IMG/VR virus record: IMGVR_UViG_2681813223_000024 | Length of the DNA stretch: 19,623 nt | Source: a virus | Lineage: Duplodnaviria > Heunggongvirae > Uroviricota > Caudoviricetes | Strand: one strand, 5' to 3' | Shown: in pieces, positions 667 to 18,071 of the stretch | Position numbering within the stretch: position 1 is the stretch's first letter | How the letters are laid out: the number at the start of each line of letters is the position of its first letter | Notes under the pieces: generated by a model | What the model saw: the letters and a program-made list of their open reading frames with translations, nothing else | What the model was told of the DNA's origin: nothing | The model's database searches: none | Program-made: the position numbers and the translations under genes

Positions 667-1221
667 TCAAAAAGCAATAACTTTTTTCTCTATACCAAAA
701 GCCATAACCATTGGTTTGTACAAAATAAATTCTGCCACCTTTAGCCAATGCTCAATGCGTCTTTCACAGGTTCTTAAACTCCATTCCGGATGTGCATCAT
801 TCAGCAGTTCAGCCATTTTGCGCTTAGTCATCCCCCGCCCCACATAACGCTGACTCAGAACATTGAGCAGCCCGGGATAACCTGCCAGTACTTCACCAAT
901 AACCCTGTCGATTATTAACGCCTCTGAATCGGTACAATGCACCAGCCAGCTTTTTTGCTTGCCGTTGATCATATCCCGCAAAAAAGCCTCAAGTTTAGGT
1001 TTGTCCAGACCTGCTTTTTTCATCCTCCGGAGCGCCTCGTTAATTGCCGTTTTTGTCAGCTTTTTAGAGGTCAGCAACTGGTTGAACATATTTCCCGTCT
1101 TACCGCCGCCAATATACGACCAGCGCCCCCACATACGTAGTTTCCCCTGAATCCAGACACTTTCCAGCGTGGTGAGACGAAGGTGCTCTCCGCTTTTTCC
1201 TGTGTTCGTTGGGTAAATCAT
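667..1221 (-). CDS. Putative late-gene antiterminator Q-like protein (184 aa)
   Basis: Start chosen at the internal ATG (1221..1219), which overlaps the stop of the upstream gene as ATGA. Placed immediately after nin-type genes and before a terminator and tRNA, the usual Q position. Family assignment is from position and general resemblance, not a clear motif. Confidence 0.5.
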   Translation of the reverse strand: MIYPTNTGKSGEHLRLTTLESVWIQGKLRMWGRWSYIGGGKTGNMFNQLLTSKKLTKTAINEALRRMKKAGLDKPKLEAFLRDMINGKQKSWLVHCTDSEALIIDRVIGEVLAGYPGLLNVLSQRYVGRGMTKRKMAELLNDAHPEWSLRTCERRIEHWLKVAEFILYKPMVMAFGIEKKVIAF

Positions 1222-1508
1222 AAATAACCGTCCTTTCTCCAGATCTCTTGTGTGCGAAAAACACCTTCTGCATGCATCAGGCGCAATTCTTCTTTGGTGT
1301 AATCGCTGGTTTTTACTCTCCCGTCGATTAAATCGTGGCATGAGTTACAGGCAATCGCTGCCTGCATATCGTGTGGCTTTATCGCTGTTCCGCACGTTCC
1401 CGCCAGCCTGTAATGCGCCAGCACAGAGGTTTCGGGATTGTGATTGCAGTAGCCAGGGATTCTGATCTGGCATATCTGGCCTTTAGCCGCTTTACGTAAA
1501 TTCACCAT
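1218..1508 (-). CDS. DUF1364 / YbcO-like nin-region protein (putative nuclease), 96 aa
   Basis: Protein MVNLRKAAKGQICQIRIPGYCNHNPETSVLAHYRL..IACNSCHD aligns by eye with the recalled DLP12 YbcO pattern (RKAARG.ECQVRIPGVCNGNPETSVLAH...IAC..CHD). ATGA overlaps at both ends. Confidence 0.7.
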   Translation of the reverse strand: MVNLRKAAKGQICQIRIPGYCNHNPETSVLAHYRLAGTCGTAIKPHDMQAAIACNSCHDLIDGRVKTSDYTKEELRLMHAEGVFRTQEIWRKDGYL

Positions 1509-2107
1509 TACGCAAACTCCAGTAGTTGTGCGGCCACATTTTCAACTTCCTCCTGAGAGGAGAATTTACGGAACAGAATCCAGTTCCACAGCACATTCAG
1601 TACAGATTTATAAACCTGCTGAAACTCGACTTCGTCCATATTCGCAAAAGCGATGGATTTTGCCCGACGCCCACGGCTACCGTCCGGATAAATATGCTCG
1701 GTGTAAAATCCGGCCTGAATGGTTACCCACTCGCGGAAAGCCTCAAACGACTTTAGCAACGCCGTATCCCGGGTTCTACGAGTCGCAACGGTGTTAAGGT
1801 ATTGCTCTGCGGCATCACTCAGGGCTGGCGTGTGTTCCCGACCAACTGATTCGCACAGGTAATCAACGAAACCAGACAGCAGTTCTCGTTCGCGAGGCGT
1901 GATCGCCCCACCGACCGGAGTCCAGTAATCGAATCCCAGTTGCAGGAGTTTGAAAAAACGCTTGTGGAATGCGTAGTTACGCACACGCTTAAAATCTGCG
2001 TGTATCCACTCACCTATTTTGATTTGATGCAGAAAATCGCAACTCTCCGGCGTCGCCGGGAGAAGTAAACCAGAAGAAGTTTGTTTGACCAGTTGTATAT
2101 GCGCCAT
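1508..2107 (-). CDS. nin-region protein, probably DUF1367 family (199 aa)
   Basis: Intact 199-aa ORF with a purine-rich stretch upstream of the ATG; its stop overlaps the next gene start. Family name is from memory of lambdoid prophage neighbours of YbcO-like genes. Confidence 0.55.
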   Translation of the reverse strand: MAHIQLVKQTSSGLLLPATPESCDFLHQIKIGEWIHADFKRVRNYAFHKRFFKLLQLGFDYWTPVGGAITPRERELLSGFVDYLCESVGREHTPALSDAAEQYLNTVATRRTRDTALLKSFEAFREWVTIQAGFYTEHIYPDGSRGRRAKSIAFANMDEVEFQQVYKSVLNVLWNWILFRKFSSQEEVENVAAQLLEFA

Positions 2108-2526
2108 TTCTCAATCTCTCGATGGCGCAGTGCAGCAGATGCCAGTTGTTCAAGCTAGCACGCAAATTGTAAACCAGAATGCCAGGAAAAAACAAAACCC
2201 GCCGAAGCTGGTTGTGTGCGGTTGCGTTGAAGTCTCCTAGCCAAAGAGTAGCGGTGACCACTCCCCGCCGATAATCTTAGTTGTTTAATTTCGTAAGCTA
2301 ACTAGGCTAAAAGCTCTCTGTTGTCTGCCTGTTGTACAATTAACAAAATGAACAACGAACTAGATATACCAACGCCAGAATGGTGCAACAAATCCCAAAC
2401 AACACAGCAATGCAACAATAACATATGTTATTTTCCTCTCACGGGATTCAGTCCTGAATTCTCATAAAGCTAATCTTTTTTTAAAAACATACTGTTAGAT
2501 CACATGCACTTTCTTTCTTAACATCG

Positions 2527-2554
2527 TTGACTTCGCATGCGAAGCGTTTAAAAT
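2527..2554 (+). promoter_or_regulatory. Sigma70-like promoter candidate for the GHKL operon with a palindrome in the spacer
   Basis: TTGACT at 2527..2532, 16-nt spacer, TAAAAT at 2549..2554, about 50 nt upstream of the ATG at 2607. The spacer contains the perfect 14-bp palindrome CTTCGCATGCGAAG (2531..2544). An A/T tract TTTTTTTAAAAA lies upstream. Confidence 0.5.
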
Positions 2555-2606
2555 CAACAATTTGCACTTAAGGTATTTATTTTCCCAAACACATAGAGAG
2601 TAAATT

Positions 2607-3998
2607 ATGACTGAGAACACGACTCCAACAGCAGACTTTAGTCCTAGTAAAAGATTTTTTGTAAGTATGCTAACTCGAGATATCGACTTAAACGATGCCA
2701 TACTTGATCTGCTTGATAACTGCGTCGATGGGGCTTTACGTACAATAAAAGACACAAAAAAAACTTCAAAACCATATGAAGGATTTTATGCGAAACTTAC
2801 GATTAATAAAGATGTCTTTATTATAGAAGACAATTGCGGAGGTATCCCTAAAAGCTTCCGAGAATATGCTTTTAAAATGGGACGACCCCATCAAAAAGAA
2901 GAAGAAAATGAAGGCACCGTTGGCGTCTATGGTATTGGTATGAAAAGAGCCATTTTTAAAATGGGTAGAGATTGCTCAATACAATCGAATAATCCCGATG
3001 GCGCATTCACTGTAGATATAACACCTGATTGGATCGATGGTGATGGTTGGAAAATACCGATGCACGAGAGTGACTATGATAACAAAAATCCAACAGGCAC
3101 AACTATAGAGATAAAAAAACTCCATTCTAATGTGGCACAAAAATTTAATGAGAGCACATATCTTACTGATCTCTTTTTACAGATAAAACACTCATTGTCA
3201 TTTATTATTCAAAAAGGATTTAAAATAGAATTAAATGGAGTTGTTGTTGAACATAATCCGATTAACATCATAACTGATCATTCTAAAATAGAACCATACA
3301 TATATAAAGCTAAAATAGACGATGTTGATATCGATTTAGTTGTTGGCTTCTATAAAAATTTAGAAGATGACAATGATGATGTTTTAGAAAAAAGGAGTTC
3401 TGATGATGCTGGATGGACTGTCATTTGCAATGACCGCGTTGTTCTATATTGTGATAAGACACATCTCACAGGTTGGGGCTTTGCTAATGTACCAAGGTTT
3501 CATACCCAATTTATAGCAATTTCTGGGGTTGTTCGCTTTACCAGTAAAAACCCAGAAAAATTACCAATAACAACAACGAAACGAGGTGTCGATCTTAGTT
3601 CTACATTGTACAATGATGTACGAAATAAAATGATTGAAGGGATGATGCATTTTATTCGATTCACCAATCAGTGGAAAGGTGAGCATCTTGAAGAAGGGAA
3701 AAAATTACTTAAGTCAGCTCAGTCACATGAAGCTCAATCTTTATTTGAAATTACCCCACAATCAACTCCAGAAGATAAAAAAAATAACTGGTCCAACCCT
3801 AATAGAAACAAAAATGAGTGGCGATATACACCTAAGCTGCCTACCCCAGTAAAAAAAAGCTCTACTGTACGAATAATCTTCACCAGAGAGAAAGAAGATG
3901 TTAAAATTTTATCTAAATATTTCTTTGGACATGAAGATGCTAGCGCTTCTGATGTGGGGATGCAATGCTTTGATACGGTGATTGAAGAGGTGAAGTGA
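2607..3998 (+). CDS. GHKL / Bergerat-fold ATPase (MutL/MORC/Hsp90-type ATP-binding domain) with C-terminal extension, 463 aa
   Basis: N-terminal region shows the ordered GHKL motifs: DLLDNCVDGA (motif I, ExxxNxxDA type), IEDNCGGI (motif II, DxGxG type), GVYGIGMKRA (motif III, GxxGxG), PTGTTIEI (motif IV, TGT). Purine-rich SD (agagag) 6 nt before the ATG. Confidence 0.85.
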   Translation: MTENTTPTADFSPSKRFFVSMLTRDIDLNDAILDLLDNCVDGALRTIKDTKKTSKPYEGFYAKLTINKDVFIIEDNCGGIPKSFREYAFKMGRPHQKEEENEGTVGVYGIGMKRAIFKMGRDCSIQSNNPDGAFTVDITPDWIDGDGWKIPMHESDYDNKNPTGTTIEIKKLHSNVAQKFNESTYLTDLFLQIKHSLSFIIQKGFKIELNGVVVEHNPINIITDHSKIEPYIYKAKIDDVDIDLVVGFYKNLEDDNDDVLEKRSSDDAGWTVICNDRVVLYCDKTHLTGWGFANVPRFHTQFIAISGVVRFTSKNPEKLPITTTKRGVDLSSTLYNDVRNKMIEGMMHFIRFTNQWKGEHLEEGKKLLKSAQSHEAQSLFEITPQSTPEDKKNNWSNPNRNKNEWRYTPKLPTPVKKSSTVRIIFTREKEDVKILSKYFFGHEDASASDVGMQCFDTVIEEVK

Positions 3999-4987
3999 TG
4001 TCTGGACAATACATTCCCTATCACTTAAGGCATAATAAGTCTATTGATAGAGAGATTTTTCTCGAAAGCCTAAACCTCTTAAGCAAAAGACTAAATATTC
4101 AAGAATATACATATATAGGTTTTGGTGGTCCGATGCTTGAAGATTTTAGAATCATGCATAATCGTATCGCTCTTTCTGATATGATTTCTCTCGAAGAACA
4201 AGAGTCTACTCACATCAGACAAAAATATAATTTGCCTTATAATTGTATTGATTGTAAGCTAATATCAGCTCATGACTTTATTCTTGATTATAGTTTTTCT
4301 AAACCATCAATAACATGGTTAGACTATGCCTCCCCGAAAAAAATACAAACGGATCTAGATGATATACACTTACTAAGTACTAAAGTAAGCTCTTTTGATA
4401 TTTTGAAGGTCACCTTCCCCATAAATCCTAGTTCTTATTACCAACGTAGAGTTGGAGAAAGTTTAGATATTTTTAAAGAAGCTTTTATTAATTCATTAAA
4501 ATCATTGCTTGGGAAAAAGTATCTTGATTTTAATCTTCAGATATCAAATGCAGATCTTTCAGATCGTAAGATTAAAGCTCTTTTAATACGAATTATTACA
4601 AACGCTTTTAGATCAGCAATAGAACGTGGTCTTTCAGGACGTAAGGATAAGATTCAGTATTACCCATTATCCTTAAATCAATATAATGATGGCAGTCATA
4701 CCATGTTGACAATATCAGGTTTTTTCTCCTCAGAACAAGAATATATAGAGTTATCTAAGGCATGCGACCTTTCTAACTGGCAATTTTATTCAACAAATTG
4801 GGAAGACGTGCAAGAAATAGCAATACCAACACTAACAATTAAAGAAAAGATAAATTTAGATAGTAAACTGCCTGATAAAGAAGCATATCAGGCAGCCGCT
4901 GAAGAGTTCTCTTTAAACGAAAATGAACGGGATAACTATTATAAATACTATAGGTTATACCCTAACTTCCAAAGAATTATGGTTTAA
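3998..4987 (+). CDS. Uncharacterised protein, translationally coupled partner of the GHKL ATPase (329 aa)
   Basis: ATG at 3998 shares its A with the upstream TGA; AGGTGA lies 4 nt upstream. An in-frame GTG at 3995 is the alternative start used in the ORF track. Long uninterrupted ORF in the same AT-rich context. No catalytic motif recognisable by eye. Confidence 0.75.
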   Translation: MSGQYIPYHLRHNKSIDREIFLESLNLLSKRLNIQEYTYIGFGGPMLEDFRIMHNRIALSDMISLEEQESTHIRQKYNLPYNCIDCKLISAHDFILDYSFSKPSITWLDYASPKKIQTDLDDIHLLSTKVSSFDILKVTFPINPSSYYQRRVGESLDIFKEAFINSLKSLLGKKYLDFNLQISNADLSDRKIKALLIRIITNAFRSAIERGLSGRKDKIQYYPLSLNQYNDGSHTMLTISGFFSSEQEYIELSKACDLSNWQFYSTNWEDVQEIAIPTLTIKEKINLDSKLPDKEAYQAAAEEFSLNENERDNYYKYYRLYPNFQRIMV

Positions 4988-6106
4988 ATATTCGGGCTGT
5001 ACTCTTTTATTTAATAAATTGTACAGCCCCTTTAATATATATTCAGCAACTATTGGTGACACGCTATTTCCTATTTGTCTGAAACTATGCCATTTAGTTA
5101 CATGAAAGCGAAACCAATCAGGGAAGCCTTGTAATCTAGCAGCTTCTCTTGGTGTAATCACTCTTGGATGATAAGGGTGGATCGGCCTGACGGCTTGAAA
5201 GCTTCCTTTATCTCTAGCGGTTCCCGCCCTTAAAGTCGGGCAAAAACCATTTGGATCTAATCTTGTAGATCTTGAAATTTTATCAGTTTCCCCAAAAGAT
5301 AAGGAAGCATAACGCTCTTGGACGATTTTGCTATGTAATGTTCCGGTACATCCAGATATGATATTATTTTTTAACTTAGCGATCGATTCTGTATCACCAA
5401 CATTCCGAGGGATCTGCCCCCATAATTTTTCATAAAATCCCCCTTTTCGATCTTTTTTAATTGTTCGCCAACTCTCAGAGTCTGATTGCCAATTGGCATC
5501 GATAATATCTGGTAATCCATACAAAGCATCTTTTACAGTAACCGGATCAATCATTTTAGGCATAAATACTTCATCTGAAATATCAAGCTTCAATGATTTT
5601 TTTACACCGATAAAAAAATATCTAGTTCGAATAGTTGGAGCACCATAATCAGATGCTTTTACCTTGATGGGATCAAGAATATCATAATCACCGCTAACCA
5701 AATTAAATGCTTTATTTCTAATGCCAGAATATTTCTCTTGCATAATACCTGGAACATTTTCTGCCAAAAAGAATAATGGCTGTAATTCTGATACTAAACG
5801 GTAGAAATGCATGTAAAGCTGATTCCTGCTATCATCAGGATTCCCCTTGCCTATTGAACTAAATCCTTGGCACGGAGGACCGCCAATAATACCATCTATG
5901 GGCATATCGTTTTTAAAAAAACCCTTAATTATTTCTGCATTTAGTAAAGAAACATCTTCTTGGACGTGCAAACTTCTTGGAAAATTAATTGCGTGAGTAT
6001 TAATAGCATGTTGATCAATTTCAACTGCCATTTTAACATCAAATCCAGCACGTGCAGCACCAAGACTTAGACCTCCAACGCCAGAAAACAAATCTATTAC
6101 ATTCAT
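4955..6106 (-). CDS. DNA (cytosine-5)-methyltransferase (383 aa)
   Basis: Canonical C5-MTase motifs in order: DLFSGVGG (motif I, AdoMet binding), GGPPCQGFS (motif IV, catalytic Cys), ENV (motif VI), QIGNSV near the C-terminus, with a long variable region between. 3' end overlaps the partner gene convergently by 33 bp. Confidence 0.9.
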   Translation of the reverse strand: MNVIDLFSGVGGLSLGAARAGFDVKMAVEIDQHAINTHAINFPRSLHVQEDVSLLNAEIIKGFFKNDMPIDGIIGGPPCQGFSSIGKGNPDDSRNQLYMHFYRLVSELQPLFFLAENVPGIMQEKYSGIRNKAFNLVSGDYDILDPIKVKASDYGAPTIRTRYFFIGVKKSLKLDISDEVFMPKMIDPVTVKDALYGLPDIIDANWQSDSESWRTIKKDRKGGFYEKLWGQIPRNVGDTESIAKLKNNIISGCTGTLHSKIVQERYASLSFGETDKISRSTRLDPNGFCPTLRAGTARDKGSFQAVRPIHPYHPRVITPREAARLQGFPDWFRFHVTKWHSFRQIGNSVSPIVAEYILKGLYNLLNKRVQPEYLNHNSLEVRV

Positions 6107-6138
6107 ATAGTTGCAACGTCTCTTATTAGTTTCTATGT

Positions 6139-6147
6139 ATTATAACA
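6139..6147 (-). promoter_or_regulatory. Extended -10 promoter element candidate for the methyltransferase
   Basis: Minus strand reads TGTTATAAT (TGn + TATAAT) about 30 nt upstream of the MTase ATG. Confidence 0.4.
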
Positions 6148-6368
6148 CAACTGTTCTTGATGTTTTAACCCCATAAGATAACCTCATAAAGGCTATCCCT
6201 TGAAAATACCGGATCGCATAAATTTAATCTTTCAAAACTACTTGTCTATTAATCGAGCAATTTAAGGTTGTTTTAGTCATGTCGATACCGACATAGTTAA
6301 CTAAACCCATTTCATCGTCCAACAAATGGGGGTAATACACTTTGATTTATAGTCGGGTGGGTTTTTCT

Positions 6369-6404
6369 CTATCTGCCTTTGGTGTTCATGCCCAAGGCAG
6401 ATAG
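6369..6404. repeat. Imperfect inverted repeat (about 13-bp arms, 9-nt spacer)
   Basis: CTATCTGCCTTTGG ... CCAAGGCAGATAG, preceded by GGGTTTTTCT on the plus strand. No U-tract follows the hairpin on either strand, so it is not a canonical terminator. Confidence 0.4.
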
Positions 6405-6457
6405 CCTCAAGCACCCGCAGCAATTCTACTTAACTATCCTTTTCCCGCAAATCGTTT

Positions 6458-6541
6458 TTATCCCCAGCGGCAAATCGAATACACAACCAGCGCCACCGCC
6501 ATCGCAATTCCTACCGTTGTGAATGCTTCAGGCCAGGTCAT
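6458..6541 (-). CDS. Small hydrophobic peptide, 27 aa (MTWPEAFTTVGIAMAVALVVYSICRWG), candidate single-pass membrane peptide
   Basis: ATG overlaps the stop of the upstream gene as ATGA; GGAGGA lies 9 nt upstream; hydrophobic core of about 17 residues. Below the ORF-track length cutoff. Confidence 0.45.
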   Translation of the reverse strand: MTWPEAFTTVGIAMAVALVVYSICRWG

Positions 6542-7023
6542 CGTGAAACATCCTCCACGCTTATAAGTCCGCTTCGCTCCAGGTAGTCCATCACTTTATC
6601 CGGCAATTTGCAGCCCGGTTTCGCTTTCTTCAGTTGACTAACCAATTGTTTAACCAGCATTGTCAATTCGCGAACTTGTTTCCCGGGCTCCCCTTTGCCC
6701 TGAAGCAGGGCAGCGCGGCAAGCGTTCCATCCCTCAGCATATGTTTCAGTTACACCATCGAGATGGCATGTAAGCAAATCCATTTCTTCCGGCACTACGG
6801 GCGCTGGAAAAACGGCATAGGGTGGCGTCCATTTTGGCGCTTTATCTCCAGCCGAACGCTGCTACCAGTCATCCGGTTTGTATTCATAAAAATCACCAAC
6901 TGGCTCTGCTTCCAGCGATGCCAGCGCAATCCGTGCCAGTTCCATTTGTTCACCACGGGTAAGCCCGTTTTCAACCGGATTTTTAATGAACAATTCAATA
7001 CGTTCTTTGGTAATAGTGGTCAT
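6538..7023 (-). pseudogene. Hypothetical prophage gene interrupted by an in-frame amber (TAG) codon at 6862..6864; about 161 codons without the stop
   Basis: ATG at 7023 with AAGGAG 7 nt upstream. After 53 codons (MTTITKERIELFIKNPVENGLTRGEQMELARIALASLEAEPVGDFYEYKPDDW) a TAG occurs, then the same frame stays open for another 107 codons to the TGA at 6538. Confidence 0.6.
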
Positions 7024-7033
7024 GTGTTACTCC

Positions 7034-7297
7034 TTAACCCGCAGTGCTTTCAACTGATGAGGGGAACAAAATCTTTTCATCAAACCCTGCATTCATATCA
7101 TGAACAGCAACACACCAATCCATCGACGAACGATTATCAAGAGCCTCCATGATTTCATCCATGCGGCGTAGGTCATACAGGTAAATGCTTTTATCGCCAA
7201 TGGTGTAAAAGCCAATTTTTTTCGGTGATGGACAGCGATCAAGAACTTCCTGTAATTCGTTCAACCATGCCCGTTCTTTTTTTGTCAAAGTTGCCAT
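7034..7297 (-). CDS. Hypothetical prophage protein (87 aa)
   Basis: Internal ATG at 7297 preceded by AAGGAAA; protein MATLTKKERAWLNELQEVLDRCPSPKK...; co-oriented with the replication operon. Confidence 0.6.
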   Translation of the reverse strand: MATLTKKERAWLNELQEVLDRCPSPKKIGFYTIGDKSIYLYDLRRMDEIMEALDNRSSMDWCVAVHDMNAGFDEKILFPSSVESTAG

Positions 7298-7548
7298 ATC
7301 AGTTTTCCTTATACGGATTAATTTTATTGTGCAGTGTGTTGAATGACGCCCATACCACGTCGTTATACAATTCAATAACTGGCTCAATTATTTTTCCGAT
7401 TATCCAGACTAGGATTAACGGGGATATCGGTATCATCAACACGATAAACAGAATGAGAAACAGAAATTCTGTTGTTCTACTCTTTCGCGGATATTTTTTC
7501 TAAATAATGTGACCATTCATTACCGCCCTTTCGGGCGGCCTCCTGACA

Positions 7549-7761
7549 TTAATCGTTGTGATAACTCATAGCTTCATTTGCAGCATCAACTGGATCAACC
7601 TCCCTCCAGCAATAATTTGGGTCGGCTCCTTCAGGCGTCCACGGTTCTAATTCATTTTTTGCCGCATTCTCATCGCCAGTAATTTTAAAAATCTGCTCAG
7701 AGAATTTTCTTGCCCACTCGTTATATTTTTCCGCATTAATGGCTTTCTGTGTATTTAACAT
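7549..7761 (-). CDS. Hypothetical prophage protein (70 aa)
   Basis: ATG preceded by GGAGG on the minus strand; a GC-rich hairpin lies just past the stop. Confidence 0.6.
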   Translation of the reverse strand: MLNTQKAINAEKYNEWARKFSEQIFKITGDENAAKNELEPWTPEGADPNYCWREVDPVDAANEAMSYHND

Positions 7762-7866
7762 AAATATACCTCCAGTTAAGGATTAAATTTTATTTACAGT
7801 GCTGAACTTAATTATTCAGATTTGGATTATGCTTTCTCTTCACGAAGTTCCGATTGTTAATTTGGC

Positions 7867-8289
7867 TCACAACAGCACCTTCTGAAAATTACCCTGATAG
7901 AAAGCCAGTACACGCTGCATAGCTTCGCTCTTCCGGCACTCGCTACAGATTATGTTCAGACGCCTGTCGTAGCGGCGTATTTCTCCGTCTGGTAATGACC
8001 AGATAAGATCCGGATCAACCACAACCGGTTTCTTCACCTTTGCCCTTGATAGTTTTTTGCGGGCGTTTTGCCAGTCTTTACGCGCCTGCTCAGACGGGAA
8101 TAATCCGTAGCCTGAATTGTAAACATCACCACTGGCGACCAGTTCTCTGGCGAGAGTGCTTATGTAATACCTTGATGCACCGGTTTTAGCCTCCAGAGCC
8201 CGTAACGTCTCGCGACCGCTCAGACGTACAAGTTCAACAACCTGCCCTTTAATTTTTTCCCGCTCTTCTGGTGTAAATACTTTTGCCAT
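7867..8289 (-). CDS. Hypothetical prophage protein (140 aa)
   Basis: Start taken at MAKVF (ATG 8289) with GGAGG 5 nt upstream. The longer track ORF begins inside that SD and is rejected. Confidence 0.65.
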   Translation of the reverse strand: MAKVFTPEEREKIKGQVVELVRLSGRETLRALEAKTGASRYYISTLARELVASGDVYNSGYGLFPSEQARKDWQNARKKLSRAKVKKPVVVDPDLIWSLPDGEIRRYDRRLNIICSECRKSEAMQRVLAFYQGNFQKVLL

Positions 8290-8304
8290 AGGTGCCTCCG
8301 GCAA

Positions 8305-9066
8305 TCACTTTTCCGACACAATACGACTGGAGGAATCGAAAATCTGTCGAACAATATCCCGGTGCTTGTTCAGCTCCCGCAGCGCGGCGCAGACTCGCTC
8401 CCACTTCTGGACATGATTTTTCGCCCGACGCAGTTCGCGGTTTGCCATATGCAGCGATGGTAAAACCAGGTCATCCGCTCGCGTTTCAGTAAACGATGGC
8501 AGCGACTGCACAATGTCCGCCACCGTTTCTGTTTTAATATCTTCCTGTGTTGCAGCCTCCTGTACTGGTAACGCAACACCTGTGGGCTGAGGAAAGGCCT
8601 TACCATCAGTTTCCGCTACCGATGCTGCTTTCGGCTCTGCTGGTAAATTATCGCCCGGTATGCAGTAACGAAATTTACCGTTCTGGTTTACGCGAATCAG
8701 GCGTCCTTTGCTGATAGCCATTGCCAGCGTTGAAGCTACTTTGCGTGATGTGGTACCGAACAATGTAGCCAACTCATCCGCCGTTTGTGGGCCACGTTGT
8801 TCAATCGTCGCGGTTAAATCGCACTCTGAGATTTTCGCTACTGTTGCCATGGTGGTTTCTTCCGGCAGCTCTGCCGGCGCTGGCTGTTCCTGCTGAACGT
8901 TGTTATCAGCCACGCGCCAGGTGTATACGCTTTTATCAACGAAGCCAGCCTTTTTCAGTTCCCACAGCTCGTTCAGCACTTCTTCTCGACTGATATCAAG
9001 TCGCGTAGCCAGTTCTACCGACGTGGCTTTTCCCATCGCTTTCAGTGCGTCAAAAACGGTCTCCAT
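8305..9066 (-). CDS. YdaW-like prophage protein with probable N-terminal winged-helix DNA-binding domain (possibly DUF1627), 253 aa
   Basis: Start at [43 protein letters not shown] (ATG 9066) with GGAGG 8 nt upstream. Position downstream of the DnaC-like gene matches ydaW in Rac; family name is from memory. Confidence 0.6.
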
Positions 9067-9088
9067 TAAAATTTCCTCCCGGTAAAAA

Positions 9089-9835
9089 TTACTTCTCAAT
9101 ACCTGGCTGACCAACATTCGGGCGCCAGCTCTCCCAGTTAAAATTCACCCAGCGCCCGCCGTTCATGGTCATGCGATCCATAATCCGCTCGCCGAGCAAT
9201 GTTTTCATGGCCTCATAGTTCAGGTTTGTCAGCATCCCCACGCTGCGCATTGACGCTGTCCGGCGATCAACAATCTGGTGCAGTACCACCTGCTCGTTTT
9301 TCGTCTCGCGCTGAATACCAATTTCATCAAGAACCAGCAGATCAACTTCGCACAGTTCCCGCAAAAATTTTTCGCCTGACTGCCCGTCGTCATAGCTGGC
9401 GTGCAGGGCGCTCATAACATCAGCCACGGTAACCACAATCACTGTCTGGCCATCTTTCAGCAGGCGATTCCCGATAGCCGCCGCCAGATGGTTTTTTCCG
9501 GTACCAGGTTTTCCGCTGAACGCGAAATTTGTGCATCCGGTAACCAGTTCGTCAGCGATAGATTTCGCCTGACTCAACGCGTATCGCTGGCCGTCGTTCT
9601 GCACCTGGTAATTCGCAAACGAGCATTTGCGGTGCAACGGCTGTATGCCGGAGCGATTCAGGATTTTTTCCACCCGCAACTGACGATTCTGACGGTTGAT
9701 CTCCTCACAACGTTTCTGGCCTTCTGCAAGTTGCCACTCGCGCCACTCCGCCACCGTCCTGAATGGCGCGGTTACATGTGGCGGGGCCAGTCTGCGGATA
9801 CGTTCCAGAACGCCGCCTGTCGCAATATTTTTCAT
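9089..9835 (-). CDS. ydaV: DnaC-like replication helicase-loader ATPase (P-like), 248 aa
   Basis: Walker [11 protein letters not shown] and Walker B LLVLDEIG present; GGGGGT SD upstream; immediately downstream of the O-like gene. Confidence 0.8.
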
Positions 9836-9841
9836 GGTCTG

Positions 9842-10630
9842 TTACCCCCTGAAGCCTGGCGGGATCGCACTGTCCGGAAACGAGACGGTGTTAATCTGTC
9901 GGAGCAACGTCTCTGGCCGAACACCTTTCGGCGCGAACAAGCCCTGGTATTCATTGGCGATGCTGTGTCGAATCACCTGCTCAGGTGAAAAACCCTGCTG
10001 GCGGAATTTTTCCAGCTCCCGTATCGCCCCGTTAGCGCCCTGCTCCGTTCGAATCGGTTTTCGCAATGCCTGCCTGAACTGAACCCACTCATGCCAGAGT
10101 GTTTCCGGCAACCAGTCAGGCAGCTCGATAGCCTCCGGTTCGAATTTTTTAGACGCTCGTTTTTGGCGAGGGGGATTTAGGGGGAGATAAGTATTTATAT
10201 CTTCCTCTTTCTCTTCCTCTGGTAACGCTTTTTGATCCGTTTTTGTAACGCTGGCAGCGTTACCTTTTCGTTTCAGTTCTCGTATTTTTGTTACTCTCTC
10301 GTTTGTAACCGCCCGTTTTTTAGAGCTTTTCCCGTTATGGCGCTCAAAGTTAGGAAGCGACAACACACCATTAGTTTCGACCAGCCATCCAACCTGAATT
10401 AACGCATCAGCAAAACCAGCCATAAAAGTGATGCGATCTATTGCACTTTTTGTAACGCCGCGAGCGTTACACTCTGCGTTACCGTCTATCATTTGTTGAT
10501 CCGCCCATGCCCAGAAGCGAATGACTTTCCCTAATGCGGCATCTGGATCAATATTCAGAATCTCAGCAAGCCTGAATATTTCCGGCTTATCCGGCGTAAT
10601 AACTTCGAGCTTTATCCAGTTTGAAGCCAT
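9842..10630 (-). CDS. ydaU: Replication initiation O-like protein (262 aa)
   Basis: Position between the YdaT gene and the DnaC-like gene; N-terminus MASNWIKLEVITPDKPEIFRLAEIL matches my recollection of Rac YdaU. Contains two of the three iteron-like palindromes. Confidence 0.7.
   Translation of the reverse strand: MASNWIKLEVITPDKPEIFRLAEILNIDPDAALGKVIRFWAWADQQMIDGNAECNARGVTKSAIDRITFMAGFADALIQVGWLVETNGVLSLPNFERHNGKSSKKRAVTNERVTKIRELKRKGNAASVTKTDQKALPEEEKEEDINTYLPLNPPRQKRASKKFEPEAIELPDWLPETLWHEWVQFRQALRKPIRTEQGANGAIRELEKFRQQGFSPEQVIRHSIANEYQGLFAPKGVRPETLLRQINTVSFPDSAIPPGFRG
10245..10263. repeat. Iteron-like palindrome copy A (GTAACGCT-GGC-AGCGTTAC)
   Basis: One of three copies of TGTAACGC-N-GCGTTAC(A) spaced about 200 bp apart; this copy is inside the ydaU-like coding region. 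Confidence 0.5.
10452..10470. repeat. Iteron-like palindrome copy B (GTAACGC-CGCGA-GCGTTAC)
   Basis: Second copy, inside the ydaU-like coding region. Confidence 0.5.
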
Positions 10631-10642
10631 TTGTTTTCACCT

Positions 10643-10663
10643 TGTAACGCTCGCAGCGTTACA
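10643..10663. repeat. Iteron-like palindrome copy C (TGTAACGCT-CGC-AGCGTTACA, perfect 9-bp arms)
   Basis: Third copy, in the ydaT/ydaU intergenic region. A second perfect inverted repeat TACCGAAC-aaaaca-GTTCGGTA follows at 10673..10694. Confidence 0.5.
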
Positions 10664-10707
10664 TTTAACTGATACCGAACAAAACAGTTCGGTACGATTA
10701 ATTTCAA

Positions 10708-11130
10708 TCAATGCACTACGACAGAATCGCTAGGAGAACCGCCGCCGCTGAAATGTGCTTTACGGTAAACGGCCTGGACTGCATCATCATGCGCATCAAT
10801 TGCCGTACTCAGTGCATCCTGTGCCGCCAGTAATGCACGGCGTTCCAGGGTATCGAAGATGCAGAGTCGGTGACGCAGCTCGCGAGGAAGAATTGCCAGA
10901 ACCGCAGGGATCAGTTTCTGAATTTTTTCCCTTTGCGCATTCGTTTCACCTTTCAACCAACGATGATAGATATTCTGCTGATTGTTCCAGTCCTTGCCTG
11001 GTACCAGGGGCAATTCGCCGCCCCCCTGGCGCAGATATTCTTCAGTAATTGCGTTAGCGACCCACGCCTGCCCTTTTTCGGCTGCCAGGGCTAACAACAC
11101 TGATTCGATGTGCTCATGCTTGATTTTCAT
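10708..11130 (-). CDS. ydaT: YdaT-like protein of the cro-ydaT early-right operon (140 aa)
   Basis: Protein MKIKHEHIESVLLALAAEKGQAWVANAITEEYLRQGG... matches my recollection of Rac YdaT; its start overlaps the Cro-like stop as ATGA. Confidence 0.75.
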   Translation of the reverse strand: MKIKHEHIESVLLALAAEKGQAWVANAITEEYLRQGGGELPLVPGKDWNNQQNIYHRWLKGETNAQREKIQKLIPAVLAILPRELRHRLCIFDTLERRALLAAQDALSTAIDAHDDAVQAVYRKAHFSGGGSPSDSVVVH

Positions 11131-11381
11131 GAATCAACTCCCATCAGCTTTTTCGTAGTAGTTTTATTTCTGCCAATAGTTAAAATTGCATCGGCAGAAA
11201 ATAATCCGTTTGATGCATGAGCGATTTTTTCAGCGTAATTTGTTTCGCCGGTATATTCTGTGCGAGGCAATTTACCGTTATCCATCCATTTGTAGATTGC
11301 TCTTTGGCTGACACCACAAACGTCGGCCACAACAGAAACGCGAACAGTTTTGATTACATCTTCAAGTGTTTTCTGGTTCAT
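11127..11381 (-). CDS. Cro/YdaS-like HTH regulator (84 aa)
   Basis: Internal start at MNQKTLEDV (ATG 11381) with GAGGG 5-6 nt upstream; HTH-like segment VSVVADVCGVSQRAIYKWM; divergent from the CI-like gene. Confidence 0.65.
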   Translation of the reverse strand: MNQKTLEDVIKTVRVSVVADVCGVSQRAIYKWMDNGKLPRTEYTGETNYAEKIAHASNGLFSADAILTIGRNKTTTKKLMGVDS

Positions 11382-11460
11382 ATCACCCTCACAATGTGAA
11401 CTTTGAGTACATGCTATAACAGAACTGACAGTACATTCAAGAGCGAATATCATTGAACTT
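11382..11460. promoter_or_regulatory. Divergent immunity-region control region (OR-like) between the cro-like and CI-like genes
   Basis: 79-bp intergenic region with two AGTACAT motifs (11406..11412 and 11430..11437) and two TGAACTT motifs (11398..11404, 11454..11460). The CI-like ATG has no SD, consistent with a leaderless transcript. Confidence 0.45.
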
Positions 11461-11880
11461 ATGGTTCATGAAGATAAAGCGCGTAAAGAGTTCGCCAGTA
11501 GGCTTGCGCTAGCCTGTGAAAACGCTGGTTATGAACAACATGGAAGGCAGGCAGAAATTGCCCGTCGAATGAAATTAACACCAAAAGCGGTTAGCAAATG
11601 GTTTAATGGTGAAACAATTCCTCGCCGAGAGAAATTAAGGGAATTAGCAACACTCATTGGAACAACACCAACCTATCTTTTGGGAGAGGATACAGAAGAA
11701 AGTGGACAGATACGTTTCTATCAGGAGTTAAATCCAAGACAAAAAATCATCATTGACCTTCTGGACGAGCTCCCTGACAGTGAGACAGATGAACTTTTAA
11801 AAACTCTTGAGGAGAAAAAACAGAAGTACAATGCAATTTACGAAGAGTTAGCACGAAAGAAAAAACAAAAAGCCTCTTAA
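11461..11880 (+). CDS. XRE-family HTH repressor, CI/RacR-like (139 aa)
   Basis: HTH segment RQAEIARRMKLTPKAVSKWFNGETIP; divergent from the Cro-like gene and co-oriented with the early-left operon. Confidence 0.7.
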   Translation: MVHEDKARKEFASRLALACENAGYEQHGRQAEIARRMKLTPKAVSKWFNGETIPRREKLRELATLIGTTPTYLLGEDTEESGQIRFYQELNPRQKIIIDLLDELPDSETDELLKTLEEKKQKYNAIYEELARKKKQKAS

Positions 11881-11957
11881 ACCAGCATAAATCCGGTAGC
11901 GTCCCCCTCCGGGTTTGTGCTTCACTTTATCCCGTCTCATTTTTTTATACATAAAAT

Positions 11958-11999
11958 GTACTTAAAGTACTTTACAATGATGAACACAAAGTACATTAT
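11958..11999 (+). promoter_or_regulatory. OL-like operator/promoter region downstream of the CI-like gene
   Basis: Contains GTACTT, the perfect palindrome AAAGTACTTT (11964..11973) and AAAGTACATT (11988..11997), sharing the AGTACAT core seen in the OR-like region. TTTACA at 11971..11976 with a weak -10 about 17 nt downstream. Confidence 0.35.
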
Positions 12000-12167
12000 A
12001 TACCTACCAACCCACCCCGCCCCACAGAACGCCGGGCAATACTTCGAGTTACCAGGCAGTGGTCAGGGGTTAAGTAGCCAGCCCGAGGCGTATGAACATG
12101 ACGGCGGGATTCAAATTTTGCAGTGCAGCAGTTAGTTCCGCCACCCGGCGTTAAGGGGATAGATAAG

Positions 12168-12302
12168 ATGGTGCATTACGAAGTAGTTCAGTATTTGATG
12201 GATTGTTGCGGTATCACTTACAACCAGGCTGTGCAGGCTTTACGCAGCAACGACTGGGATCTCTGGCAGGCAGAAGTCGCTATACGTAGCAACAAGATGT
12301 GA
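12168..12302 (+). CDS. ydaG: Small Rac-type protein (44 aa, MVHYEVVQYLMDCCGITYNQAVQALRSNDWDLWQAEVAIRSNKM)
   Basis: ATG preceded by AAGGGGA; sequence matches my recollection of Rac YdaG; below the ORF-track cutoff. Confidence 0.55.
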   Translation: MVHYEVVQYLMDCCGITYNQAVQALRSNDWDLWQAEVAIRSNKM

Positions 12303-12312
12303 GATTCGCAAA

Positions 12313-12468
12313 ATGCAAAAAATCGACCTCGGCAACAACGAATCCCTGGTGTGCGGCGTGTTCCCCAACCAGGATGGAACGTTCACTGCCATGACGTATA
12401 CCAAAAGCAAAACATTTAAAACCGAAACTGGTGCGCGCCGATGGTTGGAGAAGCACACAGTAAGCTAA
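12313..12468 (+). CDS. ydaF: Small Rac-type protein (51 aa, MQKIDLGNNESLVCGVFPNQDGTFTAMTYTKSKTFKTETGARRWLEKHTVS)
   Basis: ATG 10 nt after the ydaG stop; 3' end overlaps the sieB 3' end by 4 nt on the opposite strand; recalled as Rac YdaF. Confidence 0.55.
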   Translation: MQKIDLGNNESLVCGVFPNQDGTFTAMTYTKSKTFKTETGARRWLEKHTVS

Positions 12469-12953
12469 CGATTAAAACGTCTACTCCTGCTGTTCCAGAA
12501 TAACTTCATAAAATGGGAGTATTTTTCGGTGACGAGATAATAAGAACAGTTTGCGCTATCACTCTGATGTTGAATGATGCCCTTCCGTTCTAATTTTTTC
12601 ATAACCGGGTTACGGCAAGGAGAAGTGATAATAAGATTTCCTGTTTTAAGGAAATCTTTAAATACAGCGATTTCTTTCTCAGATAAACGAAGCAATACTC
12701 GTTGCTCTGGTAGTAATGAATAATGCTTTTGAATATGTGCTCGCAATCTTGAGAAGGAAATGGCGACCACGAAAGAAAAGGCAAAAACGATAATCTGAAA
12801 GAGCCAAGGTATTTCAGTATAAGCATTGAATGCGACAGTAAACTCTTTCGGTATCAGCCAGAGAGTGAGACCAAAAATGATAATCGTATACATAAGTCTT
12901 TCGAGTGGCTCGTTAGCAAAAAGTTTCAACAATGGAGTAAATACATCCAACAT
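12465..12953 (-). CDS. sieB: Superinfection exclusion protein B (162 aa)
   Basis: Start at MLDVFTPLLKLFANEPLERLMYTIIIFGLTLWLIP (ATG 12953) with GAGAG 8 nt upstream; hydrophobic N-terminal half; opposite orientation to the early-left operon, as in lambda and Rac. Confidence 0.8.
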   Translation of the reverse strand: MLDVFTPLLKLFANEPLERLMYTIIIFGLTLWLIPKEFTVAFNAYTEIPWLFQIIVFAFSFVVAISFSRLRAHIQKHYSLLPEQRVLLRLSEKEIAVFKDFLKTGNLIITSPCRNPVMKKLERKGIIQHQSDSANCSYYLVTEKYSHFMKLFWNSRSRRFNR

Positions 12954-13171
12954 ATCAATAACTCTCAACTGTAAGGGTATTGAAATGTTAACACAAGCTC
13001 TCGCTGTAGGGGTATAGCCGAGACCACCGAAGCCCGGAGGTGGTGAAATAAAACCGGGCACAACACGAAGGCGCATTTCCGATATCCATAAAGAGTCGGT
13101 CTTGTCTGTTAAATTTAAATGGTGGGAGTGCGCCTCCGGTTGTAAATAACGACATTGCTGTGTGTAGTCCT

Positions 13172-17695: not shown

Positions 17696-17845
17696 ATGAG
17701 ATATGACAATGTTAAACCATGTCCATTTTGTGGTTGTCCATCAGTAACGGTGAAAGCCATTTCAGGATATTACCGAGCGAAGTGTAACGGATGCGAATCC
17801 CGAACCGGTTATGGTGGAAGTGAAAAAGAAGCACTCGAACGATGA
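17696..17845 (+). CDS. ralR: RalR/Lar-type restriction-alleviation toxin, apparently truncated to 49 aa by an in-frame TGA
   Basis: MRYDNVKPCPFCGCPSVTVKAISGYYRAKCNGCESRTGYGGSEKEALER then TGA at 17843..17845. The same frame continues NKRTTGNNNGGVHV to a TAA at 17888..17890, which matches the recalled 64-aa RalR C-terminus where Trp (TGG) stands in place of this stop. Confidence 0.6.
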   Translation: MRYDNVKPCPFCGCPSVTVKAISGYYRAKCNGCESRTGYGGSEKEALER

Positions 17846-17882
17846 AATAAACGAACCACTGGAAATAATAATGGAGGTGTTC

Positions 17883-18071
17883 ATGTATAAAATTACCGCC
17901 ACTATTGAAAAGGAAGGTGGCACTCCTACTAACTGGACAAGATATTCAAAATCTAAACTAACGAAATCAGAATGCGAAAAAATGCTCTCAGGTAAAAAAG
18001 AAGCAGGCGTTTCCAGAGAGCAGAAAGTAAAACTGATAAATTTTAATTGCGAGAAACTTCAGTCCTCGTGA
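17883..18071 (+). CDS. ydaC: Small Rac-type protein YdaC-like (62 aa)
   Basis: Start at MYKITATIEKEGG with GGAGGT 6 nt upstream; the ATG overlaps the position of the ancestral ralR stop. Confidence 0.65.
   Translation: MYKITATIEKEGGTPTNWTRYSKSKLTKSECEKMLSGKKEAGVSREQKVKLINFNCEKLQSS

Follow-up and report, generated by a model that had tools for sequence, protein, structure and literature searches.

A natural amber allele of an EaA-like gene in the Sp10 prophage, probably a nonsense pseudogene with a recombined 5' end

The minus strand of the DNA analysed here, a stretch of 19,623 nucleotides that we call the window, carries an open reading frame interrupted by an in-frame amber codon. We conclude that a dispensable accessory gene is very probably present here as a natural nonsense pseudogene; on the most parsimonious history an amber mutation was followed by replacement of the 5' end, and the resulting allele spread with the prophage Sp10. 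The feature is of an ordinary kind and there is no new mechanism here. The frame opens at ATG 7023, in front of which a ribosome-binding site (7024..7040, minus strand) presents AAGGAG with a 6-nt spacer and forms an anti-SD duplex of −8.7 kcal/mol, bearing out the strong SD named in the original prediction. The 53 sense codons that follow encode MTTITKERIELFIKNPVENGLTRGEQMELARIALASLEAEPVGDFYEYKPDDW and end in TAG (6864..6862), after which 107 further sense codons lie in the same frame, just as had been described from the sequence; the chance of 107 stop-free codons in random sequence is p ∼0.006. Also as described, the frame closes in an ATGA overlap, its TGA (6540..6538) being shared with the ATG (6541) of a 27-aa ORF. 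By translation and annotation the 53-codon, amber-ended ORF (6862..7023, minus strand) corresponds to Sakai ECs_1951, EDL933 Z2391 and WP_000208018.1. The post-amber part (6538..6861, minus strand; 107 sense codons and the TGA) corresponds to the old ECs1952 (Z2390), a tag dropped from the current RefSeq record. What the upstream ORF encodes is a complete N-terminal module (N-module) with ∼10 linker residues; the conserved C-terminal module (C-module) is absent from it and is situated, with a variable middle, beyond the amber stop.

The window is part of a known prophage. Positions 814..13040 are 100% identical, over 12,227 bases, to Sp10 of E. coli O157:H7 Sakai, a lambdoid prophage integrated beside ttcA whose recET, racC, kil and sieB-type genes are those of the Rac family. 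The locus comes after O-like and DnaC-like replication genes, DUF1627 and DUF977, and before a C5 cytosine methyltransferase gene. Sp10 has been scored as nearly complete, its only defect being a repressor without a peptidase domain (Asadulghani et al. 2009, PMC2669165); it excises spontaneously, and a marked derivative passed to K-12 and integrated there next to Rac (PMC2669165). Since Sp10 is mobile despite the amber, the gene is dispensable for mobility and the allele can hitch-hike. Its spread would have required only that Sp10 remain excisable and transferable, the gene being needed for neither; the lesion has moved between STEC serotypes in a prophage that is still mobile. The region has surfaced before in comparative work: ECs1950-1955 were present in all lineage I O157:H7 tested and in no lineage I/II or II (Zhang et al. 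2007, PMC1890555), and a transcript-network study names ECs1951 as a hub (PMC7286201). Being a hub is evidence of transcription of the region and of nothing more. The literature on ECs1951/ECs1952 and Z2390/Z2391 consists of gene lists only (lineage-I CGH probes and the network hub), with nothing on translation or function.

The evidence that the two halves were once one gene comes from intact relatives. The E. coli strain EE72d and the isolated phages vB_EcoS-666R9, -673R7 and -613R10 carry at the same place a single intact 167-aa gene, WP_000137958.1, to which window positions 6930..6462 are 98.9% identical. Alignment places TAT in EE72d where the window has TAG (GACTGGTATCAGCG against GACTGGTAGCAGCG), and on this alignment we read the amber codon (6862..6864, minus strand) as the product of a nonsense change, T to G at position 6862 of the window, in a conserved Tyr codon, residue 54 in the window ORF and Tyr60 in the 167-aa parental gene. 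The original prediction had looked to orthologues for the codon they carry; it is TAT (Tyr), within one continuous gene. Two separate genes, which that prediction had set against a split gene, are found in none of the true orthologues and occur only in the paralogous arrangement of strain DS566-2, which differs from the window in the middle segment. Like the window ORF, the EE72d-type orthologue lies after a DUF977 gene and is followed by the same 27-aa ORF. It differs in its N-module (MTELTKKQLIEE..), in having TAT for TAG, in a Pro for the window's Ala at one site, in a penultimate Leu where the window has Ser, and in the downstream neighbour, which is a KilA-N gene rather than the window's cytosine methyltransferase.

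Tyr at the amber position is not peculiar to one N-terminus, being found in intact relatives with at least four different N-modules (P0002-P0009, P0014 and P0018), and intact homologues of 162–167 aa align across the stop. When the frame was repaired, residues 1–160 of the resulting protein matched profile positions 3–192 of 193 in PHROG 660 (E = 1.6e-44). TAT or Tyr in the intact relatives, together with PHROG 660 extending over both halves, therefore indicates that the halves were once one gene. Three marks of a pseudogene are present at this locus: a sense codon in close orthologues, one protein family over both sides of the stop, and a stop that is real.

A protein database search recovered 5,821 relatives, and several carry the name 'Eaa protein' or 'DUF551 domain-containing protein'. 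The EaA-like N-terminal module of the 53-codon ORF found matches in PHROG 60, 3323 and 660, and the repaired protein matched PHROG 60 with E = 1.1e-23; no functional assignment was found among the matching PHROGs. In an alignment of 39 full-length members, the family shows a conserved N-module end (..ARIALASLEAEPV), with ..IALASLEAEPV as the end conserved across the family, then a hypervariable middle that ranges in length from 0 to ∼150 residues, and finally a conserved C-module of ∼45 residues (ELTMLVKQL..LPDKAMDYL..GLISVEDVLR), with invariant or near-invariant columns in both modules. The repaired protein belongs to this family by its significant full-length match to PHROG 660 and by possession of both conserved modules. 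Scanned against Pfam, the repaired protein and its relatives gave sub-threshold noise only, and no DUF551 (PF04448) domain was found by Pfam in the repaired protein, which has only the N-module in common with DUF551 proteins. An AlphaFold model of the intact parent P0007, of low confidence overall (pLDDT 56, pTM 0.26), has a helical hairpin (6–44), a low-confidence linker (48–83) that contains the Tyr/amber site, and then helices; the ancestral linker and middle were probably disordered. Elsewhere in the family the modules come apart and together. DS566-2 (1878..2386) has a stand-alone 55-aa N-module gene with a 4-nt overlap to a 114-aa gene ending in the same C-module, and in P0012 and P0019 a gene pair of the DS566-2 type is fused in frame to give 167–168 aa. 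Fission and fusion seem to be recurrent in the EaA-like family.

The locus is itself a mosaic, and its structure bears on the order of events. With block limits taken from blastn (7510->6897 and 6930->6150), a left block at window positions 7510..6897 is DS566-2-like (96.3%), and a right block at 6930..6150, which includes the TAG, is ST2747/MB07011-like (99.5–99.9%). The two blocks overlap in 34 nt (6897..6930, minus strand) that encode the conserved N-module end, ..IALASLEAEPV.., and partial blastn hits end here; this crossover interval lies 33–66 nt upstream of the amber. The same TAG stands behind an EE72d-type N-module in ST2747, in MB07011 and in three IMG/VR contigs, and those copies share with the window the linked ..KKAKPG.. 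and ..EDVSR and the methyltransferase neighbour. In every sequence seen, TAG was linked to ..EDVSR and TAT to ..EDVLR, and TAT always stood behind an EE72d-type N-module. A construct that joins the window-type N-module to TAT found no exact counterpart in complete genomes, all 167 of its full-length matches having one mismatch. The single apparently intact window-type protein in a collection of 15 billion proteins, P0001 (159 aa, with Gln at the site), was rejected as such: its locus, at 971..1447 of Logan contig SRR27176603_314, carries TAG, which had been translated as Gln.

These data suggest a sequence of two steps. A single origin of the amber, in a gene whose N-module was of the 'MTELTKKQLIEE..' kind, would have come first, and homologous recombination within 6897-6930 would then have swapped in all upstream sequence, bringing with it a P22-eaA-like N-module and a strong ribosome-binding site. 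The window-type N-terminus never occurs with TAT and the amber haplotype stands behind two N-modules, which points to a strong start most likely grafted by recombination onto an already amber-bearing, dead gene. Mutation followed by recombination is preferred because putting recombination first would call for an intermediate that was not observed and for one more recombination; we infer the direction of the exchange from this parsimony and from the missing combination of a window-type N-module with TAT. The window's 160-codon frame was thus probably never an intact gene, and the description of a well-initiated gene in the original prediction holds for its start, which is strong, and not for the gene as a whole, the 5' end being probably a graft. 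If so, the locus is an example of lambdoid mosaicism in which recombination took place inside a gene by way of a short conserved linker-coding segment.

How old the lesion is can be judged from its distribution and from the state of the frame beyond it. We searched complete E. coli genomes with a 99-mer centred on the codon. It had a match of any kind in 277 of them, the TAG allele being exact in 172 and the TAT allele in 101. The TAG carriers are O157:H7 (Sakai, EDL933, 86-24, ATCC 35150 and others), O111:H8, O103:H2 and a few non-STEC strains. A scan of IMG/VR with the codon left free returned 11 TAT and 8 TAG and no other codon, and TAG is also present in a Logan SRA assembly (contig SRR27176603_314). 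The amber site had no match in species-representative genomes, one per species, and the locus appears to be confined to E. coli-type prophages absent from representative assemblies. No further damage was found in the 321 nt after the stop. When the 404 nt that follow the stop were used as query, nine rows taken at even intervals down the ranked hits were 100.0% identical, and directly after them came the TAT haplotype at 99.3%; this evenly spaced sample fits at least ∼157 identical copies. The TAG haplotype is essentially invariant and the whole right block near-monomorphic. We attribute the lack of further decay to recency, the near-monomorphic state of the block making it uninformative about constraint. 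The one derived change on the TAG haplotype, Leu to Ser at the penultimate residue, affects a residue that at least 90% of the family retains, and fits relaxed constraint, as a single event. Of the proposal that this is a recent nonsense pseudogene, the second part is upheld by the TAT of the orthologues. The word recent is apt only insofar as no further decay is visible: in O157:H7, O111:H8 and O103:H2 the allele is fixed in prophages of the Sp10 type, and one recombination event already lies behind it.

What the two halves now produce can be assessed from their initiation signals. Initiation at ATG 7023 would be efficient and termination through RF1 at the TAG would release a 53-aa N-module fragment, and the 107 codons after the amber, having no credible start, would probably be silent; we infer on these grounds that the 53-aa fragment is made and the downstream half is not. 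The fragment may not be functionless, because ∼55-aa stand-alone N-module genes exist naturally. In silico the post-amber half is without a usable ribosome-binding site. Close to the stop, start codons in this frame are limited to GTG 6795, where the anti-SD duplex is +0.6 kcal/mol, and ATG 6783, where it is −3.5 kcal/mol and GGAAG stands only 2 nt away, too short a spacing. The 81-aa protein that PGAP annotates from the latter (WP_000365100.1, 6783..6538, minus strand) is probably not a real protein.

These signals also weigh on the alternative that the gene has undergone a functional fission, leaving a 53-aa N-module protein and an 81–85-aa C-terminal protein, initiated at ATG 6783 or GTG 6795, with both products retained and each module working alone. 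Such an outcome would have precedents in the natural stand-alone N-module genes, in the DS566-2 pair of 55 and 114 aa and in its fused versions, P0012 and P0019; PGAP calls an 81-aa protein here, and every copy sampled keeps the downstream frame free of damage. We nevertheless consider fission unlikely. The internal starts compare poorly with real starts nearby (−8.7 and −9.3 kcal/mol) and lie 67–79 nt past the stop, far for re-initiation; intact relatives have no conserved start or ribosome-binding signal there, the point falling mid-domain in the alignment; and the undamaged frame is equally explained by recency, given that the whole block is monomorphic.

Less probable still is that a full-length protein of ∼160 aa is made at a low or conditional level by read-through of the amber, through a suppressor tRNA or near-cognate decoding of UAG, a reading we regard as very unlikely. 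The 107 codons after the stop are open, the base following it is C, UAG-C being among the weaker RF1 contexts, and some basal level of read-through is expected at any stop. However, there are no tRNA genes in the window, and those of the whole of Sp10 are only ileZ, a tRNA-Ile(CAT), and argO, a tRNA-Arg(TCT), neither a suppressor. On the host side the check covered supE only: a supE-type glnV (the query validated by exact match to C600, DH5alpha and DH1) was exact in 155 of 5,426 genomes, all 60 among the matches listed being K-12 laboratory derivatives. Among the 172 TAG carriers it must therefore be missing from at least 77, and it is probably missing from all. TAG is moreover an ordinary terminator in Sp10, ending 4 of its 63 CDS, that is, three other genes including int, and no internal stops were found in the other Sp10 CDS (63 examined); Sp10 thus shows neither the avoidance of TAG as a terminator nor the frequent in-frame TAG of genome-wide recoding. 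Nor was the stop found to be conserved across diverged homologues, which have Tyr, the amber being limited to one haplotype. We detected no stimulatory RNA structure 3' of the amber, the 100 nt from the TAG being unremarkable against shuffles (z = −0.63). The third possibility raised in the original prediction, expression by amber suppression, accordingly finds no support in the tRNAs, in the TAG terminators of Sp10 or in supE, which is confined to K-12 in the matches listed. Basal read-through amounting to a fraction of a percent is possible, and nothing suggests that it is programmed.

It is comparably improbable, in our estimate, that the amber allele is itself the selected state, the full-length protein being possibly harmful to the lysogen and the 53-aa truncation favoured, with trace read-through of the remaining part possibly still occurring. 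If true, this would account for TAG outnumbering TAT, for the second N-module context and for the lack of further decay. The last alternative, a sequencing or assembly error in a single record, has nothing beyond the prior expectation that single-base errors exist and is negligible, since 172 complete genomes, assembled independently of one another by many laboratories and on many platforms, have the same TAG, as do 8 IMG/VR contigs and an independent SRA assembly; the amber stop is real. A nonsense mutation in a dispensable gene, followed by exchange of its 5' end, remains the reading that we prefer.

Several features close to the locus were recorded in their own right. The 27-aa ORF that overlaps the end of the frame (MTWPEAFTTVGIAMAVALVVYSICRWG; 6458..6541, minus strand) is hydrophobic and unannotated, and with its own SD, GGAGGA (−9.3 kcal/mol), it need not depend on translational coupling. 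Its peptide is identical in 17 of 18 copies, with synonymous differences only and an alternative stop codon, and many genomes have the same 84 nt, at 98.8% identity, behind DUF551 genes. Judged by this distribution it appears to behave as an independent mosaic module, and it is possibly a small membrane peptide. In the left block, a DUF4014 gene (∼7300..7516, minus strand) has a 1-nt deletion near 7496, in an A-rich run, relative to the intact gene of DS566-2, and is labelled 'frameshifted' by PGAP; two inactivating lesions, this one and the amber, lie within ∼650 nt of each other.

On the other side, a cargo island (2607..6106) adjoins the locus and travels with the amber-bearing right block. 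It consists of a C5 cytosine DNA methylase gene (4955..6106, minus strand) convergent with a pair of plus-strand genes that overlap one another, one for a GHKL-type ATPase (HATPase_c_3; 2607..3998) and the other for a Methyltransf_35 protein (3995..4987), and may be a restriction-modification or defence-like module. Farther away, a full-length Rfam match (225 bits) identifies the RalA sRNA, the antitoxin of the Rac-type RalR/RalA system, at 17889..18067 on the minus strand, where it overlaps an 86-codon plus-strand ORF (17811..18071).

The pseudogene reading has consequences for annotation. In Sp10-type prophages RefSeq lists a pair of 'hypothetical proteins', one of 53 aa (WP_000208018.1) and one of 81 aa (WP_000365100.1), and the same amber allele in ST2747 and MB07011 is a PGAP pseudogene with an 'internal stop', so that one allele is treated inconsistently across prophages. 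The case of P0001 illustrates a different hazard, a metagenome gene caller having applied a TAG=Gln code to a short contig and thereby given a large database an 'intact' protein that is spurious.

Among known systems, the nearest counterpart of the upstream half is eaA of Salmonella phage P22. The first ∼40 codons of the window ORF and its ribosome-binding site have ∼91% DNA identity to the start of eaA, and EaA and the family of PHROG 660, 60 and 3323 have in common a conserved N-module, a hypervariable middle and often the C-module. P22 EaA differs in its length of 317 aa and in its other middle and C-terminal domains, and eaA lies in the early-left 'ea' region, whereas the window copy follows the replication genes and is truncated by an amber. 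The laboratory amber mutants of lambda (Sam7, Oam29 and Pam80) likewise have a TAG inside a phage gene with the frame intact beyond it. Those mutants were selected as conditional-lethals in essential genes and need supE or supF hosts; the allele in the window, in contrast, is natural, its gene is dispensable, and it resides in wild STEC hosts without evidence of a suppressor. An in-frame stop within a phage ORF is also found in phages that recode or read through stops. TAG-recoded crAss-like and Lak phages carry suppressor tRNAs, and the A1 protein of Q-beta is produced by UGA read-through, whereas the amber described here is confined to a single site and haplotype, in a prophage that has no suppressor tRNA and uses TAG as a terminator elsewhere, and its homologues have Tyr in its place.
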